From a virus: a DNA stretch of 64,000 nt. This document shows, in pieces, positions 1 to 32,107 of this stretch. Where the stretch lies: the IMG/VR virus record IMGVR_UViG_3300045988_106519, positions 32,001-96,000 of that record; one strand, given 5' to 3'. Under the pieces are notes generated by a model. It saw nothing but the letters and a program-made list of their open reading frames with translations, had not been told where the DNA came from and made no database searches. Position 1 is the first letter of the stretch; every line of letters starts with the position of its first letter. A program made the position numbers and the translations under genes.

Positions 1-35
1 TATTGGGCTTGAACCAATGACACCAGGCTTAGTAT
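1..35 (-). tRNA. 3' half of a split tRNA, truncated by the window edge
   Basis: Minus strand 35->1 reads ATACTAA (loop), GCCTG (stem strand), GTGTC (variable loop), ATTGG/TTCAAGC/CCAAT (T arm), then A. GCCTG pairs with CAGGT of the 5' half at 806-810. Confidence 0.5.
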
Positions 36-37
36 AG

Positions 38-111
38 TGGTTGATATGGGACTCAAACCCATACTCTTCCCTTTAGGAGAGGGATGCTTTATTCAATTAA
101 GCTAATCAACC
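38..111 (-). tRNA. tRNA-Arg, anticodon CCU
   Basis: Hand-folded cloverleaf: acceptor GGTTGAT/ATCAACC, D stem GCTT/AAGC, anticodon stem TCCCT/AGGGA with loop CTCCTAA, T stem ATGGG/CCCAT. Atypical features: the D loop lacks GG and the T loop is TTTGAGT. Confidence 0.75.
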
Positions 112-710
112 ATTTTTGCTTTGCCATAATAAGCACTTTTTCCTCTTGGTGCATTTTTATTTCTAGAACCAAAGTTTTTTGTTAATGAATGACAGTTAGG
201 ACATAATACTTGCAAGTTACTTTCTATATTATTTTTAGAATCCCCATCTATGTGGTGAATCTGCAATGGAATTTTATTTGTATATGGATTCACTTCACCC
301 CAACCACATTTTTCACATTTGTAATTATGTTTTTGAAGCAAGTAATTCCTAACGAATGTACTGCAACTATAACCATTTGTTCCATCTATATGTCCTTCTT
401 TCCATTCTTTAATACGTTGTTCTTTTTTATATTTTACTGCACATTCCTCACTACAAAATAATCCTGTGGAACCAGGATATTTAGCAAAAACTTTCCCACA
501 ATATTTACAAATTCTCGTACTTATTTTTCCTTTATTAAATGTCTCTGATGGATTTATTGTTCTTCTTTTAGGCAGATTTATACCAAGTCTTTGAGCAGCT
601 TTTCTGACTGCATGACCTGAGACATTATACATCTTTCCAATTTCATCATAACTTTTTTGTTCTTTATATATTAAATTGAACAAATTATCCTTTTCTGTTT
701 TCCAATCCAT
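102..710 (-). CDS. HNH homing-type endonuclease with an N-terminal HTH-like region
   Basis: C-terminal motif CEKCGW...LQIHHIDGDSKNNIESNLQVLCPNCHS, plus CxxC pairs. The TAG stop overlaps the tRNA-Arg 5' end by 10 nt. Confidence 0.9.
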   Translation of the reverse strand: MDWKTEKDNLFNLIYKEQKSYDEIGKMYNVSGHAVRKAAQRLGINLPKRRTINPSETFNKGKISTRICKYCGKVFAKYPGSTGLFCSEECAVKYKKEQRIKEWKEGHIDGTNGYSCSTFVRNYLLQKHNYKCEKCGWGEVNPYTNKIPLQIHHIDGDSKNNIESNLQVLCPNCHSLTKNFGSRNKNAPRGKSAYYGKAKMVD

Positions 711-798
711 TTGAACTTATATTTTATATCTACAAAGATACTTAATACTAAGTTCAATTATTCTTATATAACAAAAGGTCTTATTTATTATAATATTA

Positions 799-837
799 TT
801 ACTAAACCTGTGCTCTATCCAACTGAGCTAAGGGAGC
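799..837 (-). tRNA. 5' half of a split, Thr-like tRNA
   Basis: Minus strand 837->799 reads GCTCCCT TA GCTC AGTTGGATA GAGC A CAGGT TTAGTAA. No matching 3' stem, T arm or acceptor strand occurs in the next 90 nt. Confidence 0.55.
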
Positions 838-872
838 ATAAAAACTTCTACTGTTCTCACGAATGGTAGAAG
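838..872 (-). terminator. rho-independent terminator
   Basis: Minus strand has stem CTTCTAC/GTAGAAG followed by TTTTTAT. Confidence 0.6.
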
Positions 873-1307
873 TAAACTAAAAACATTTTCAACCTAACAT
901 TTTAATTATAATTCAATCTACAAAGAACTATTGCAAAGTTATACTGTAAAATAGATAATGCAAAACATATAACCATGAGACTAAGAACGTCTTAATGGAA
1001 ATATGAGGTTTGCTTAGGCTTGACCTTTTCAATAACGAAGAAGGTGGCCTTGCGTTGAATGATGTGCCTAAAACCAAGTTTAAAGCACTGAAACCAACTT
1101 CGGGTGCACATCATGCCATACTCATGAATGTATGGGAGAAGAGAGATGTAATGAAGTTTGTAGAAAGTGATATATCTTTTAGTTCTTGGTATTGCTGTAG
1201 TATTTTGAGAAGTCCTCGAACTTTACTGTATGGGTAGAAGGGTTGTAGATACAACGTGCTATAAGCTGGGTGTTTGATTTAGATACATTGAACATAATAT
1301 ATTAGTT

Positions 1308-1550
1308 TTAATGGTGAAACAATGTTATAAGAATATCATCAAGGGTGCTGAGAAGTCTACGTCTGTAGAATAACTCCATTTTGTTTGGACTATCTTTGTT
1401 GCTATGATAGTCAAGTCTTGCAGTATCAATCTTAGATAGACTATCCATAAAGAATCTATTCTTATACTTGAGGTGATTACACTTTGTATTGAGATAGATT
1501 GCTATGGATAATAGCAAGATGATTAGGAATATTGTTAATAATATAAGCAT
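1308..1550 (-). CDS. small hydrophobic protein (trimmed from ORF 1308..1736 to internal Met MLILLTIF)
   Basis: The upstream part of the long ORF overlaps the better lipoprotein ORF. The trimmed start lies 14 nt after that ORF's stop. Confidence 0.35.
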   Translation of the reverse strand: MLILLTIFLIILLLSIAIYLNTKCNHLKYKNRFFMDSLSKIDTARLDYHSNKDSPNKMELFYRRRLLSTLDDILITLFHH

Positions 1551-1563
1551 AATTATTGTTGTT

Positions 1564-1779
1564 TTAATGTTGTTTCTTTTTATAGCATGAACAATCAGGG
1601 TTATGAACAACTGCAATACCTCTATCTTCATACCATATATAGTAAACATGACCACGGTATTGAAGTTGCTTATCTGGGTAATCCCATCCATTACCTTCAT
1701 ATAATGGATCTGTCTGAGTTTTGGGGTCACATGCACAAAGTGCTATAAGTGCAAGAATGATTAGAATATACTTCTTCAC
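1564..1779 (-). CDS. small putative lipoprotein
   Basis: N-terminus MKKYILIILALIALCAC looks like a signal peptide with a lipobox Cys. Confidence 0.6.
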   Translation of the reverse strand: MKKYILIILALIALCACDPKTQTDPLYEGNGWDYPDKQLQYRGHVYYIWYEDRGIAVVHNPDCSCYKKKQH

Positions 1780-1807
1780 AGTTTTATCTTTCCATTGTTA
1801 ATATCAA

Positions 1808-2137
1808 TCAATTATTAATATCAATCATTAGTCTAAGAAGAGTAGCACTTACAGTAGTTGCAAGGCTACCCTTCAAGAAGAAACCTCCAAGGTCTTCATT
1901 CCATAGTACCTTGAAAGTAACTTTATCAAGCACAATAGTGTCACCCTCATAGACCTCCTTTCCACTCTTATCTTTAAATCCAGTATATTGTCCAACAGTT
2001 AAAGGGTCAACTTCTACTCTATTACAAATAGAGTCTTTATACCATTCAATATATGTACCAAATGGAGTTTTGACAAGAGAACCGTACGCCCATTGGTTAT
2101 TGTCTTTGCGTTTACCACAAAATTTGAATGTTCTCAT
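1808..2137 (-). CDS. YopX-family phage protein
   Basis: KF..K......W.YGSL ... VDPLTVGQYTGFKDKSGKEVYEGDTIV matches the YopX signature. Confidence 0.75.
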   Translation of the reverse strand: MRTFKFCGKRKDNNQWAYGSLVKTPFGTYIEWYKDSICNRVEVDPLTVGQYTGFKDKSGKEVYEGDTIVLDKVTFKVLWNEDLGGFFLKGSLATTVSATLLRLMIDINN

Positions 2138-2140
2138 TAC

Positions 2141-2350
2141 TTATTCCTCCTTAAGTTCTACAGGTTTATCAGTCCAGCTAAGCTCTCGTCCGATGAGCTT
2201 CTTTATGCTGCCATTAGGAAGTTGGAAACCATAGGCTCCGTTTCTATCTTGTGGTAACCAATAGTTGTGCTCGTCATAATCACCAGCCCACATATCTGGC
2301 TTACAGTTGAATATCCATTCGCCAATATAATCTTTTGCTACCCATGCCAT
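2141..2350 (-). CDS. hypothetical protein
   Basis: ORF track; co-oriented with neighbours; 3-nt spacing. Confidence 0.6.
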   Translation of the reverse strand: MAWVAKDYIGEWIFNCKPDMWAGDYDEHNYWLPQDRNGAYGFQLPNGSIKKLIGRELSWTDKPVELKEE

Positions 2351-2352
2351 TA

Positions 2353-2721
2353 TTATTCCTCCTTTATGCCGAATGGTGTACCATCAGCAAATGTATAATC
2401 TTCAAAATCTAATTCAAAATTACAATTACCATCGATATTGCAATATGTGGTATACTTGTTTTCCTCTTTATACTTTACCCACCCAAACGGCTTATGCTTC
2501 TGCATTTCCTGCCAACACTCTTCTGTATCCTTAAAGGGACGGTATTGAGATTCTGGTTTAATGCGATATCTTGAAGAGTGATAATTAAATTTAACATCTT
2601 TGTCACATTGAATATCTCTCCACCATTCTTCTGTTTCAGTTAAACTTAAAAATTGTATCGTTTTACCTTCTGCAAATGCCTGTATAATAGGCAGCAGTTC
2701 TTTCGCTTGTTGTCTGTTCAT
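2353..2721 (-). CDS. hypothetical protein
   Basis: ORF track; tight operon spacing. Confidence 0.6.
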   Translation of the reverse strand: MNRQQAKELLPIIQAFAEGKTIQFLSLTETEEWWRDIQCDKDVKFNYHSSRYRIKPESQYRPFKDTEECWQEMQKHKPFGWVKYKEENKYTTYCNIDGNCNFELDFEDYTFADGTPFGIKEE

Positions 2722-2727
2722 AATTAT

Positions 2728-3078
2728 TTACAGTTTAGTTGGTCGTCCGTGAGTATAAACATCATGCTTGGCACGAGTGCCGTCTTTTTCTTCCCTATAG
2801 AAGAAGAATGTCAAACCTAATGTTGCTCGCATATACTTTTCTGATGGTGTATGTGGAACTATTCTTGAAAGCCAGCCTACGTTTCCATCTTCATCTATAA
2901 CCTTATCTCCGATTTTAAAAGGCAGGGCTTTAATATAGTCCTCTTGAAGTTGTTTCATATCTTGAAGCAATTCCTCACGCCTTATATTTAACCTTACCTT
3001 TCTATCTATAAAAGGCTTCATTGTTTCTAACCGTTTTAGCCATTTATCTATTTGCTTGTCTAATTCTTCTTTTGTCAT
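2728..3078 (-). CDS. hypothetical protein
   Basis: ORF track; tight operon spacing. Confidence 0.6.
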   Translation of the reverse strand: MTKEELDKQIDKWLKRLETMKPFIDRKVRLNIRREELLQDMKQLQEDYIKALPFKIGDKVIDEDGNVGWLSRIVPHTPSEKYMRATLGLTFFFYREEKDGTRAKHDVYTHGRPTKL

Positions 3079-3081
3079 AAG

Positions 3082-3321
3082 TTATTCCTCCAATAAATTA
3101 AAATCAGCAACATTATGATAGAAATCTCCGTCACCATAAATGTTACATGAATAGCTCTTGCCTTCCACACAAACCTCGAAGTAGTTGTTGTCATCATATG
3201 TGATTTCAACATCATCTGGCAGAATATTCTCCTTGAACCATTCTGTGCTATCTATGTTATCCATTGGCTCTGAAGTGCTAAAGGGCACACATTCACAATT
3301 CTTAATATCTTCTATACTCAT
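3082..3321 (-). CDS. hypothetical acidic protein
   Basis: ORF track; 4-nt overlap with the upstream gene. Confidence 0.6.
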   Translation of the reverse strand: MSIEDIKNCECVPFSTSEPMDNIDSTEWFKENILPDDVEITYDDNNYFEVCVEGKSYSCNIYGDGDFYHNVADFNLLEE

Positions 3322-3749
3322 TGTTTGTCCTCCAAAAAATAAATATAAAGGTTATACTTCTCTTTTACTTTCTTGAACTTGTCCAAGAGAAAGGAGTTTT
3401 GCAAGATTGCATCTATTACTTTCTGTACAGTTCCATATTCAACTAATACGATAGTCTTACTACCTGGGCGTTCATCATCTGGAGAGTAAGGAACACCGTA
3501 ACATGTGTAGGGAACTCCGTCTGACAAGTAACGTAGAAAGGTTCCAGTGTTCTCATCTAAAACCTCATCGGTTATGATTCTGTCAATCTCTTGAAAATCC
3601 TTATACTCTTTTCGTGTAAGATTAAATTTGATTCCCAAAGGATAATGCCCAACACAGCCATCAGTACCGAAGTATATTATGCGGTTTGGCTGCTTATTAT
3701 GTTCTACTGGTCGCTTAAGACCAATGTATGAAATATCAGATGTTGACAT
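3318..3749 (-). CDS. hypothetical protein, paralog of 5533..5871
   Basis: Shared blocks IIYFGTDGC.GH.P.GI and YGVP.S.DD.R.GS. Confidence 0.65.
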   Translation of the reverse strand: MSTSDISYIGLKRPVEHNKQPNRIIYFGTDGCVGHYPLGIKFNLTRKEYKDFQEIDRIITDEVLDENTGTFLRYLSDGVPYTCYGVPYSPDDERPGSKTIVLVEYGTVQKVIDAILQNSFLLDKFKKVKEKYNLYIYFLEDKQ

Positions 3750-22725: not shown

Positions 22726-23910
22726 CTATTTGGATTTATGATAGATAAGCTTCTCTATATAAGCAATAACCTTTTCATTGGCTTTATTGATATTGGTATA
22801 ATCCTTTTGTATATAGATGTCAGTAATACTCATATCTGATACATGGTTCAATGCTTCATGTATAGTATACTTATCTATACCAAGCCTGTTTCTTGCTATT
22901 GATGCCCAAGTATGTCTGGCAGAATAGAAATCAAAATGAGGAATACTCAAGGTGTCTGCAATTATATACAGTCCTTTATTTATATGTTTGTTGAAATTAG
23001 CTGCATTGCTATACTTCTTATAGAAGTTAAACACTCTTGAGTCTCCTTTATATTTATCAAAAAGAGGTTTTATTATATTAGGTACTGCTATTTCAATATG
23101 TGCATTATCTATTCTTCTATCTCTTGTCTTTGCTCTGTCATAAGCAAGTACACCATTACTATATGATGTACATTCATATAGATCAACAGAGTTCATACCT
23201 ATAAGACAGAATGATAAAATATAGCAATCCCTTGCCATTCCAACTCTTCTTGTTCCATGAAAGTTAAATAGTTTAATTAGGTTATCAACACTGATAATTC
23301 TATTCTTTGTCATTGATACACTCTTAGGAATGATAAAGCTATTAAATGGATTATTGGTTATTACCTTGTTATCATCCATATTATATTCTCTTATAGCCTC
23401 ATTGAATATATGACGCATACAACCTAAGTATAAAGACTGTGCTCTTGGATGTCCAGTAAGATAATCTTTATAGTTGTTGAGAAGATTATAATTAATATCA
23501 GAGAATAAAAGTGTGTCACTTTTTAGAAATCTGTATAAAGAATTAAGCATAATAGAGTAGTTGCCTTTTCCTTTATTATTTGATTTCTCAACCCACTTTC
23601 TTGTATATTCAAAAAAGTCCAGTGTCTTGACATTACCTGTTAATTGAGAATATATCCATTCAATATCAGCATCTTTATTTCCCAAGCTAGTCTCTATTTC
23701 ATATAACCTATTCTTTAAAGTATTTATAGTGTCTTCAATATTTCTTTTAAGACTATCAGACTTTATCTTTCCTTGTTTTGTTAGGTCACACTCCTTTATA
23801 ACAATATTTGTATGGATTCTCTTTCTTATTCCTTTATGAGATAGTGTTATTGAAACTTTCCTTGTCTTATCTTTTTTAGGTTCTTCTATTTTATATGTGA
23901 TTGTAGCCAT
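22726..23910 (-). CDS. int: tyrosine recombinase / phage integrase (Bacteroidota type)
   Basis: C-terminal catalytic pattern FYSARHTWASIA (R-H-x-x-R context) ... ALNH ... DIYIQKDY (His/Tyr). Has an N-terminal arm-binding-like beta region and sits next to a tRNA-derived sequence. Confidence 0.9.
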   Translation of the reverse strand: MATITYKIEEPKKDKTRKVSITLSHKGIRKRIHTNIVIKECDLTKQGKIKSDSLKRNIEDTINTLKNRLYEIETSLGNKDADIEWIYSQLTGNVKTLDFFEYTRKWVEKSNNKGKGNYSIMLNSLYRFLKSDTLLFSDINYNLLNNYKDYLTGHPRAQSLYLGCMRHIFNEAIREYNMDDNKVITNNPFNSFIIPKSVSMTKNRIISVDNLIKLFNFHGTRRVGMARDCYILSFCLIGMNSVDLYECTSYSNGVLAYDRAKTRDRRIDNAHIEIAVPNIIKPLFDKYKGDSRVFNFYKKYSNAANFNKHINKGLYIIADTLSIPHFDFYSARHTWASIARNRLGIDKYTIHEALNHVSDMSITDIYIQKDYTNINKANEKVIAYIEKLIYHKSK

Positions 23911-24017: not shown

Positions 24018-24092
24018 GTTTCAATAGCTCAGTTGGATTAGAGCAACAGCCTTCTAAGCTGTGGGTCTTGGGTTCGAACCCCAACGGAATCA
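24018..24092 (+). tRNA. tRNA-Arg(UCU)-derived sequence with a non-pairing 5' acceptor strand; putative attP core
   Basis: D arm, anticodon arm (ACAGC/CTTCTAA/GCTGT), T arm (TTGGG/TTCGAAC/CCCAA) and 3' strand CGGAATC-A are intact. The 5' strand GTTTCAA pairs at only 4 of 7 positions. Confidence 0.6.
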
Positions 24093-24121
24093 CAACGAAA
24101 AAATGCTTCAAATTTGATTGT

Positions 24122-30583: not shown

Positions 30584-32107
30584 ATGGCCGGAAAATTAGG
30601 TAAATTCCAGAAGCAGACATTTAGCCATTGGAAGGGTACAACTAAGGCAAATCATCTTGGTGGTATTTTCCAGATGCAGCCACAGAGGGCAACATCCTTG
30701 ATGGTACAGCTGCTTGCTTGGCATAAAGGTAAGACCCTTGAAACATTTTTGTCACAATTTCCAACAAAGTCTTTTGACAATGATGATGAGTACACATGGG
30801 ATATTTGTGGTAGTTCATCAAGGAACATTCCATTGGTAGAGGCAAGGGATGCAGATGGTATAGATGTATCAGCAACTTCACGTAATGGAGCAAATGTTGG
30901 TGTGAATGGTGAGCCATTCTACTTGGTGTTTGCAGAAGATTGGTTTGCTGATGGTGAGGTAATTGTTGGTGAGCGCAATGAAGTATATCCTATTAGGGTG
31001 CTTGCAGATGGTAGGAATGAGGGAACCAACACTGTATACAAGGTAGAGTTGATGGGTGGTATCACCTCTGGTATTCCAGTAGAAGAGCTGCTTGCAGGAA
31101 AGAGGTTCTCAGTTGACTTTGCCCCAGTAGAAAAGGACTTCTCTCGTAAGGTTGGTGATGTACGCTTCTCAAGTCCTATAGCAATGAGGAATGAGTTTAC
31201 AACCATTCGTATTCATACCAAAATAGCAGGCTCAATGATTAATAAGAAAGTAGCCTTTGGTATTCCTATTGTAAAAGAGACAAATGGTCGCTATGTGAAG
31301 GACACTGTAAACATGTGGATGCACTATGAGCAGTGGGAGCTTGAACAGCAGTGGAGTGATTATAAAAACAATATGCTTGCTTATGGTCGCTCAAATAGAA
31401 ATATGAATGGTGAGTACCTTAATATTGGTAAGAGTGGTGAGGTAATTCGTATGGGAGCAGGTCTTTATGAGCAGATGGAGGCAGCTAATACTTTTACTTA
31501 TAACACCTTCTCATTGAAACTTATTGAAGATGCTCTCTATGAGTTATCAGCAGCAAAGCTTGGTATGGAAGATCGTACATTTGTAATCCAGACAGGTGAG
31601 CGAGGAGCTATTCAGTTCCATAAGGCAGTGCTTAACACTGTAAGTGGTTGGAAAGCATTTACAATTAATGGAGACCAGATAGATATGGTAAGGAAGGTAC
31701 AGTCGCCATTGCATAAGAATGCTTTGTCAGCAGGCTTCCAGTTTGTAGAGTTCCAAGCACCAAATGGTGTAACTGTACAAATTAAGGTTGATTCTCGATA
31801 TGATGACCCAGTGCGTAATAAGATTATGCATCCAAATGGAGGACCTGCTTATTCTTATAGGTACGACATCTTTGACATGGGTAACATGGACCAGCCAAAC
31901 ATCTTTAAGTGTGGTGTAAAGGGTATGGAAGGTGACTTGACATCTTATGAGTGGGGTCTAAGAAATCCATTTACAGGTCAGATGGGTAATCCAAATGCTT
32001 CACATGATGAGGATTCAGCAACCGTCCACAAGATGACAACAATGGGCATATGTGTGCTTGATCCAAAAAGGACATTGAGTTTGATACCAGCTATTTTGGT
32101 AGCTTAA
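30584..32107 (+). CDS. major head component: major capsid protein candidate (portal not excluded)
   Basis: 507 aa of mixed alpha/beta sequence following the scaffold-like gene. No diagnostic motif is visible by eye. Confidence 0.45.
   Translation: MAGKLGKFQKQTFSHWKGTTKANHLGGIFQMQPQRATSLMVQLLAWHKGKTLETFLSQFPTKSFDNDDEYTWDICGSSSRNIPLVEARDADGIDVSATSRNGANVGVNGEPFYLVFAEDWFADGEVIVGERNEVYPIRVLADGRNEGTNTVYKVELMGGITSGIPVEELLAGKRFSVDFAPVEKDFSRKVGDVRFSSPIAMRNEFTTIRIHTKIAGSMINKKVAFGIPIVKETNGRYVKDTVNMWMHYEQWELEQQWSDYKNNMLAYGRSNRNMNGEYLNIGKSGEVIRMGAGLYEQMEAANTFTYNTFSLKLIEDALYELSAAKLGMEDRTFVIQTGERGAIQFHKAVLNTVSGWKAFTINGDQIDMVRKVQSPLHKNALSAGFQFVEFQAPNGVTVQIKVDSRYDDPVRNKIMHPNGGPAYSYRYDIFDMGNMDQPNIFKCGVKGMEGDLTSYEWGLRNPFTGQMGNPNASHDEDSATVHKMTTMGICVLDPKRTLSLIPAILVA

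Follow-up and report, generated by a model that had tools for sequence, protein, structure and literature searches.

Does a phage tRNA gene that has been split by an endonuclease gene continue to function through splicing, or has it been destroyed and replaced by what entered it? This question arises from a locus at the beginning of a 64,000-nt stretch of viral DNA (IMG/VR record IMGVR_UViG_3300045988_106519, positions 32,001 to 96,000; hereafter the window), in which the minus strand of positions 1-837 carries two tRNA pieces enclosing a gene for an HNH homing endonuclease and a complete tRNA-Arg(CCU). The phage is crAss-like, with a major head protein 67% identical to cr106_1, IAS virus and crAss001 homologues. 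The minus strand was read directly, and tRNA numbering was used for positions in the interrupted gene, referred to as the resident tRNA; the enclosed complete tRNA is referred to as the cargo. Loci and contigs compared with the window are designated by L-numbers (L001, L008, etc.), and those with this arrangement come from ENA, Logan, IMG/VR, and a public metagenome-contig collection. The analyses used ARAGORN (including its intron mode), Rfam, Pfam, PHROGs, blastn, megablast, and cofolding against shuffled sequences. The reading we favour, at a probability of roughly 0.8 given the sequence comparisons, is that of a free-standing homing-endonuclease cassette which is lodged in the very gene it targets and makes up for the loss of that gene by replacement and not by splicing. 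The features of the locus are as follows:

804..837, minus strand: 5' part of the disrupted resident tRNA-Arg(CCU), tRNA positions 1-33 (to U33); 34/34 nt identical to the uninterrupted tRNA-Arg(CCT) of L001-L007
800..810, minus strand: 5' strand of the closing helix, CAGGTTTAGTA; cofolding, covariation
33..803, minus strand: inserted cassette, 771 nt, in place of one C of the CCT anticodon; blastn breaks, near-identical in 11 contigs
711..803, minus strand: AT-rich leader, 93 nt, with a promoter-like motif (TAnnTTTG before the ATG)
102..710, minus strand: open reading frame (ORF) of the HNH homing endonuclease, 202 aa; Pfam, PHROGs
38..111, minus strand: complete cargo tRNA-Arg(CCU); ARAGORN, Rfam tRNA 66.1 bits, covariation among homologues
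33..37, minus strand: spacer CTATA, 5 nt, between the cargo tRNA and resident-derived sequence; direct reading, blastn junction
24..34, minus strand: 3' strand of the closing helix, TACTAAGCCTG; cofolding, covariation
1..32, minus strand: 3' part of the resident tRNA-Arg(CCU), comprising CTAA, the 3' strand of the anticodon stem, the variable loop, the T arm, and the first acceptor base; 31/32 nt identical to the uninterrupted allele

The two pieces are parts of one tRNA gene, as had been observed from the letters alone. The 5' part (837-804) reads GCTCCCT TA GCTC AGTTGGATA GAGC A CAGGT TT and the 3' part (32-1) reads CTAA GCCTG GTGTC ATTGG TTCAAGC CCAAT A, the window edge cutting the resident tRNA at that point. 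The search of relatives for an uninterrupted allele was successful: an exact search of IMG/VR with the 5' part returned seven loci, six of which contained an uninterrupted tRNA of 75 nt, with the sequence ...CAGGT TTCCTAA ACCTG GTGTC ATTGG TTCAAGC CCAAT AGGGAGT A in L001-L005 and L007. The halves in the window are identical to this allele at 34/34 and 31/32 positions, and an exact IMG/VR search with the resident 3' half gave zero matches because the window has the G39 variant. The sequence-only reading had suggested a Thr-type body with a G1-C72 pair. The uninterrupted allele is instead a tRNA-Arg(CCU), so that the split gene and the cargo have the same anticodon, a point that reading did not contain. 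In L008-L017, which encode an identical HNH protein, the 3' part runs on past window position 1 as ...CCAAT AGGGAGT A (10/10), and AGGGAGT closes the resident acceptor stem through G1.U72 and six Watson-Crick pairs; the predicted completion of the stem was thus found, reading AGGGAGT where AGGGAGC had been expected. In L015, the split tRNA carries a compensated change in the acceptor stem.

When the occupied locus was aligned with the empty loci by blastn, the alignment broke exactly at the junctions, with 771 nt replacing 1 nt. The insert, its AT-rich leader, and a gap between the cargo and the 3' half had been recognised earlier, with lengths of 763 bp, 88 nt, and 2 nt; these are corrected to 771 nt (803-33, replacing one C), 93 nt, and 5 nt (CTATA). 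The two 7-nt loops, which had raised the idea of a target duplication, are not the result of one: only TT and CTAA derive from the old loop and the junctions are reverse complements and not direct repeats.

In these phages, tRNA genes are flanked by hairpins that have a GTGAGA or GTGAAA loop and a T run behind them; these hairpins are probably shared terminators or processing signals. One of them, CTTCTACCATTCGTGAGAACAGTAGAAGTTTTT (window 844-873, minus strand), directly precedes the resident tRNA, and similar hairpins lie downstream of the 3' half in L008-L017, L106, and L114. A hairpin terminator immediately after the resident 5' half was also considered and was rejected, as it was unsupported by a terminator scan.

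If the insert were an intron, group I or other, or if the halves were joined at the RNA level, both of which had been proposed from the sequence, the resident tRNA-Arg would stay functional. Endonuclease-bearing group I introns occur in the anticodon loops of bacterial tRNA-Leu(UAA), tRNA-fMet, tRNA-Arg(CCU), and tRNA-Ile, and the cassette resembles them in being a mobile insert in an anticodon loop around which the anticodon stem is still paired, the paired cassette ends extending that stem as introns often do. Moreover, some tRNA-Leu(UAA)-like phage genes are interrupted between U34 and A35, where group I introns classically lie, by inserts that encode distant relatives of the HNH protein, and the intron mode of ARAGORN accepts the joined resident halves over a 770-nt 'intron'. 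However, the product of that joining does not restore the CCU anticodon: the junctions TT|AGTA...CTATA|CTAA leave one C, and the 7-nt loop would read ACU on an Arg body. Since one anticodon C has given way to the insert, CCU is not restorable by any excision. In addition, the 5' exon ends in U but the final 12 nt of the insert are devoid of G, and group I introns end in G; the space for a ribozyme outside the ORF and the cargo tRNA amounts to the 93-nt AT-rich leader plus 5 nt. No Rfam intron family was detected in the window at E<=10 or in five cassettes at E<=1, which is weak evidence because the presumed tRNA-Leu group I intron of L084 was missed as well. In L217, loop positions 32-33 are AA, which is incompatible with a decoding tRNA, and other lineages wholly lack one resident half. 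We also rejected an intron or split tRNA of the archaeal bulge-helix-bulge type, as the junctions form one continuous helix of 11-13 bp with no bulges, the phage is crAss-like with promoter motifs of the Bacteroidota type, and the joined product has no anticodon. Survival of the resident tRNA through splicing is therefore extremely unlikely, and the cassette differs from the group I tRNA introns in lacking a ribozyme, a terminal G, and a recoverable anticodon, a second gene being what would restore the function.

The tRNA-Leu(UAA) inserts with distant HNH homologues were seen in L084, L085, L088, L091, L093, and L095 (about 2590-3510) and measure ~780 nt. The Rfam group I model did not detect the tRNA-Leu(UAA)-like inserts in L084-type loci. 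TGA occurs in frame in the HNH ORFs of these inserts and is therefore probably a sense codon in the phages concerned.

Evidence for mobility was obtained by comparing empty alleles (L001-L005, L007) with occupied ones (L008-L017, L116), the junctions being exact. The search for the same HNH and tRNA-Arg unit elsewhere found the cassette 98.7-100% identical among 11 occupied contigs. In the 1 kb upstream, the window's type (L008/L014) is only 76-86% identical to the other occupied contigs, barring a few near-identical pairs, and in the 1 kb downstream non-duplicate occupied contigs are 84-98% identical. The flanks of L116 are of the L001/2/4 type and those of L008, among others, of the L003/5/7 type, so both cassette-bearing backgrounds also have empty alleles. 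This conservation far above that of the flanks supports the earlier proposal that a mobile endonuclease-plus-tRNA cassette homed into a phage tRNA gene and inactivated it. In the public contig collection, 31 blocks list the identical HNH protein, and 23 contigs carrying it were read; among deposited phage genomes, megablast gave zero matches to window 1-3000, and the nearest deposited HNH protein is 35% identical.

The same comparison bears on whether the arrangement is ancestral, or a product of array rearrangement or assembly, with the 'empty' alleles arising by deletion and with no site-specific mobility. The tRNA arrays of these phages are indeed full of orphan tRNA pieces and rearrangements. 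However, a deletion would have had to recreate TTCCTAA to the letter, cassette identity stays at ~99% between backgrounds that diverge by 15-24% in their flanks, the same loop position was struck in at least five different resident sequences, and the arrangement recurs in independent samples and in all four collections. We regard this explanation as very unlikely. The 771-nt insert contains no integrase and no duplicated tRNA segment of the kind found in integrase islands in tRNA genes; nor does it contain a transposase or a direct target duplication. It does have an inverted repeat of 11-13 bp at its ends, 7 bp of which are host tRNA sequence and vary between hosts.

Two other elements were noted in the same phages. 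An integrase-like ORF (PHROG 1, 4.8e-15) is located at window 22726-23910 (minus strand), 22 kb from the cassette and ~100 nt from a tRNA-Arg(UCU) (24018-24093, plus strand), which is unexpected for a crAss-like phage, a group usually deemed non-integrating. Past the left edge of the window, at ~7 kb from the cassette, there is a second, independent mobile element, a LAGLIDADG endonuclease ORF followed directly by a group I intron (Rfam 54 bits; L008 16424-17874); it is present in L008, L009, L011, L012, L014, and L017 and absent from L010 and L013.

Homologous cassettes, consisting of an HNH gene whose product is 58-81% identical and a tRNA-Arg(CCU), interrupt at least four other, clearly different tRNA-Arg(CCU) genes. 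Cassettes at the same loop position were found in L018/L117, for which L099 provides the empty allele, in L102/L103, in L114, and in L196, and L217 has an insert at that position from which the HNH gene is deleted. All HNH homologues at least 54% identical and with readable flanks adjoin a tRNA-Arg(CCT) gene or its remnant, and more distant relatives are located in phage tRNA arrays. A parallel design was found in L023, where a split tRNA with G3.U70 flanks a tRNA-Ala(UGC) and an HNH gene; G3.U70 is the alanine determinant. With these homologues, the empty alleles, and the completed acceptor stem, the original claim that an HNH and tRNA-Arg(CCU) cassette divides a single tRNA gene at its anticodon loop is supported. 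ARAGORN intron mode produced many chimeric calls on tRNA arrays, in which the 5' and 3' halves came from different tRNAs, and its calls were filtered against intact tRNAs; a scan for orphan T arms and a search for matching 5' halves were too noisy to extend the class past Arg and Ala.

Various stages of decay were also observed (L113, L106, L104, L197, L214, L217, and L235). Specifically, in L214 the HNH gene is truncated and the resident 5' half is lost; in L217 the HNH gene is deleted and a tRNA remains nested in the split tRNA; in L113 and L235 only the cargo and a remnant of the resident 3' half are left; and in L213 the cargo-type tRNA stands alone, the related L104 having at that place a canonical tRNA, the HNH gene, and a cargo remnant. 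Homing endonuclease genes usually pass through a cycle of invasion, fixation, and decay, and the series fits this cycle, its net effect being the replacement of a tRNA allele.

Several unusual tRNA loci were encountered beside or apart from these cassettes. In L227 (about 910-1178, minus strand), a tRNA 5' half reading GGCTCCT TA GCTC AACAGCATA GAGC A TGTAT abuts a different endonuclease ORF, which is HNH_3-like (...YAVIPEHP...YVLLHR...), so the splitting of tRNAs by endonuclease genes is not limited to this HNH family. In L021 (2770-2921 and 3904-4057), L111/L112 (2112-2293), L224, and L129 (about 1020-1118), tRNAs adjoining HNH homologues contain structured inserts of 80-110 nt immediately 3' of the anticodon, a size too low for group I introns. 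The inserts share one organisation, with a hairpin, a spacer, and a minihelix-like element that includes a T arm (TTCGAAT) and is followed by CAA; the insert-bearing tRNA of L111 is a tRNA-Arg(CCU). Beside the HNH homologue of L118, L119, L120, L124, L148, L198, and L108, there are tRNA-Arg(CCU)-like genes that ARAGORN does not call; their variable arm is long and their D arms are odd. Finally, the L018-type cassette of L117, a phage contig of 96 kb, is followed downstream, after ~300 nt, by a transfer-messenger RNA (tmRNA) gene (2217-2589; Rfam 49.4 bits).

Considering the cassette itself, its ORF encodes an N-terminal HTH-like region, a zinc ribbon, and a C-terminal HNH domain with an intact HHIDGD...N...LCPNCH motif. 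It matches Pfam HNH at 7.5e-6 (26.4 bits versus a curated cut-off of 21.4) and the PHROG HNH families (best PHROG 1271, 3.3e-20), and 1137 homologues were retrieved at E<=1e-20. The leader contains the promoter-like motif TATCTTTG at 740-733 (minus strand), of the form TAnnTTTG, the -7 element of Bacteroidota promoters. This form occurs 20-30 nt before the ATG in 10 of the 11 Arg-clade lineages as well as in L023, and we infer that the leader motif may act as a promoter. At the other end of the ORF, the last three codons and the stop codon overlap the first 10 nt of the cargo tRNA, and the overlap is tight in all lineages. At the junctions compared (window 102-111, L018, L102, L113, L114, L196, and L214), the HNH stop codon is always within the cargo tRNA, at tRNA positions 4-6 or 8-10 and in two reading frames, and the cargo acceptor stem co-varies in a manner that preserves both the stop codon and the base pairing.

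The cargo tRNA scores 66.1 bits in Rfam against a gathering score of 29. Among its homologues, the acceptor and anticodon stems are preserved by compensatory changes, and the 19:56 tertiary pair is kept as Watson-Crick, being A:T, T:A, or C:G and not the usual G:C. Loci with a truncated or deleted HNH gene, or with none at all, still have a tRNA of the cargo type (L214, L217, L235, L213). Within the ORFs of the window, arginine codons are AGA in 63% and AGG in 25% of cases, and the only other tRNA in the window is Arg(UCU). Judged from these comparisons, the cargo looks functional and appears to outlast the endonuclease. An altered or reversed 19:56 pair (C19:G56, A:T, T:A) is also characteristic of a widespread family of phage tRNA-Arg (UCU and CCU; cargo 38-111, L199-L237), in which it replaces the near-universal G19:C56 and is accompanied by a D-loop AAYTG-N- and a T-loop TT-N-GAGT. 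As this architecture is common in stand-alone phage tRNA-Arg genes, the cargo is probably a captured ordinary phage tRNA. The idea that the 19:56 pair causes immunity of the cargo to the endonuclease was weakened by the same observation.

This ordinary, widespread architecture would also be expected if the cargo were a mere hitchhiker, with the resident tRNA dispensable and nothing 'rescued'. It is common for free-standing endonucleases to carry flanking DNA along; T4 SegB, for instance, mobilises the tRNA genes next to it (PMC2330249). On the other hand, the cargo anticodon equals the target anticodon in every Arg lineage, and L023 pairs a tRNA-Ala cargo with an Ala-type G3.U70 split tRNA. 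The tight overlap of ORF and tRNA in all lineages, the compensated stems of a cargo that outlives the HNH gene, and the 25% share of AGG among arginine codons likewise argue against it. Hitchhiking alone is consequently unlikely.

The ends of the cassette revealed a further regularity. The junctions are reverse complements over 11 bp, CAGGTTTAGTA (810-800) pairing with TACTAAGCCTG (34-24), with a cofolding energy of -14.6 kcal/mol versus -8.8+-1.4 for shuffles (p about 0.0025). The 5-bp anticodon stem of the resident tRNA thereby gains 6-8 pairs, just two of which derive from the old loop, for a total of 11-13 bp. Across lineages the extension has three sequences, namely TTAGTA/TACTAA, TTATAAG(A)/(T)CTTATAA, and AAGTAAA/TTTGCTT, and the difference from shuffles is significant in four lineages representing all three (p = 0.0025-0.009). 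When the six extension pairs were tabulated over seven sequences, 92.9% of cells held a formed pair, compared with 67.3% in shuffled sets (0/500) and 26-48% when slid, and compensatory types occur at five of these six pairs. We think that this closing helix acts at the RNA level, where it could shield the nested tRNA, as it folds, from the outer halves that resemble it, or could provide a processing stalk comparable to the stalks on either side of rRNAs.

It is possible, and compatible with homing, that the split outer tRNA and the closing helix together form a functional RNA module, such as a tRNA-like shell insulating the nested cargo or an RNase III/RNase P stalk releasing the HNH mRNA and the cargo. 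The pairing statistics and compensatory types given above would be expected of such a module, as would retention of the helix in L217, which has no HNH gene, and the compensated acceptor-stem change in the split tRNA of L015. Conversely, the helix is weak in L114, L196, and L023, only about five independent lineages are available, and the halves are lost in L113, L106, L214, and L235 while the cargo stays. The inverted repeat may also have originated at the DNA level or as an insertion scar, and the change in L015 could stem from the recipient allele. We regard a module of this kind as rather unlikely. A bolder version, which we advance tentatively and at well below even odds, is a composite mobile DNA described as 'tRNA-in-tRNA', in which the broken outer tRNA and its co-evolving closing helix would be a functional RNA shell. 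Equally tentative is the corollary that this shell processes or insulates the nested replacement tRNA and the endonuclease mRNA, with the unit driving the turnover of tRNA-Arg alleles across crAss-like phages.

Taken together, the empty alleles, the closed acceptor stem, a cassette conserved above its flanks, and related cassettes in other tRNA-Arg(CCU) genes support a homed cassette, for which a mechanism can be proposed. During co-infection with a phage that lacks the cassette, the HNH enzyme would cut or nick that phage's uninterrupted tRNA-Arg(CCU) gene near the anticodon loop. Repair would draw on the cassette-bearing genome, with the tRNA halves and flanks serving as homology, and the cassette would be copied in. 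The occupied allele would be immune because its site is split, and the cargo tRNA, which differs from the resident over most of its length, would escape cutting and supply AGG decoding. The cassette would be transcribed from its own promoter of the Bacteroidota type, and, since the HNH stop codon lies inside the cargo tRNA, processing by RNase P would remove the stop and could limit endonuclease synthesis. The paired ends would probably close the insert at the RNA level, in either of the two roles suggested for the helix. Once the cassette is fixed, its HNH gene would decay along with the resident halves, and the cargo would stay as the new resident tRNA.

Certain observations weigh against this scheme. 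The upstream flanks of the empty alleles in IMG/VR are only ~80% identical to those of the window, and TAnnTTTG alone occurs in the window at chance density. Some cargo tRNAs (L018, L102, L113) share the 13-nt core GT TTCCTAA AC with resident tRNAs, so the immunity of the cargo cannot rest on the anticodon arm. In L104/L105 and L197, an intact canonical tRNA-Arg(CCU) is situated right upstream of the HNH gene, an arrangement which implies that simple insertion into a target does not cover all cases. These same loci display the reverse outcome, with the downstream cargo-type tRNA reduced to a T arm and an acceptor remnant, and the intact tRNA of L104 has an unusual CCCCTAA loop (C33).

When compared to known systems, the cassette shows partial likeness to several. 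T4 SegB spreads itself and neighbouring tRNA genes in mixed infections (PMC2330249; PMC2988022). Both endonuclease genes lie outside any intron or intein and among phage tRNA genes, and both enzymes recognise, or in the case of the cassette would recognise, the sequence of a tRNA gene. However, segB is situated between tRNA-Arg and tRNA-Ile, whereas the cassette sits inside a gene and leaves a split target; SegB is a GIY-YIG enzyme and not an HNH enzyme; and SegB has no same-anticodon replacement nested in its target. Furthermore, homing by SegB was shown experimentally, and that of the cassette is proposed from sequences. In Aeromonas phage Aeh1, nrdA is split by mobE. Aeh1 mobE is mentioned in a review on T4 (PMC2988022), and 'fractured genes' with split inteins are the subject of PMC2677866. 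The likeness consists in a homing endonuclease gene inside a host gene that is left in two pieces. In contrast to the split tRNA, whose pieces cannot decode, those pieces still yield a working product through subunit assembly or trans-splicing, and only the cassette carries a complete substitute gene. In collaborative homing, a free-standing endonuclease gene lies beside an intron that protects the target site (PMC2988022). There, too, the enzyme's own genome is protected by an interrupted target site, but the interruption is a self-splicing intron and not an endonuclease cassette with a replacement gene. Regarding logic only, the cassette is analogous, without family relationship, to a further design. 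In synthetic cleave-and-rescue (ClvR), a useful gene is lost to a nuclease, and carriers are rescued by a linked copy of it that resists cleavage. ClvR is engineered, Cas9-based, and eukaryotic, with the rescue copy usually at another locus. The cassette is therefore unlike all of the systems compared, being inside its target, abolishing it, and carrying a complete gene of the same function. Full-text searches of the literature, whose coverage is incomplete, yielded no description of this arrangement.

The existence of the cassette is thus well supported by comparative evidence, and it predicts an HNH enzyme specific for a tRNA gene. Because standard tRNA finders report only the inner tRNA, the disrupted genes and the mobile element around it are invisible in current annotation. 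The naturally nested tRNA pair and its conserved closing helix also pose a concrete question of RNA processing. Homing endonucleases are known to persist in useful genes by means of self-splicing introns and inteins, or to lie between genes; the cassette would represent a third route, in which the gene is entered and destroyed and a working copy is brought along. If the 'tRNA-in-tRNA' idea were true, gene replacement would stand beside introns and inteins as a third solution to homing into a useful gene. For crAss-like phages, one of the most abundant phage groups of the human gut, the cassette would be a natural instance of the engineered cleave-and-rescue logic and may be a means by which phage genomes rapidly replace tRNA alleles.

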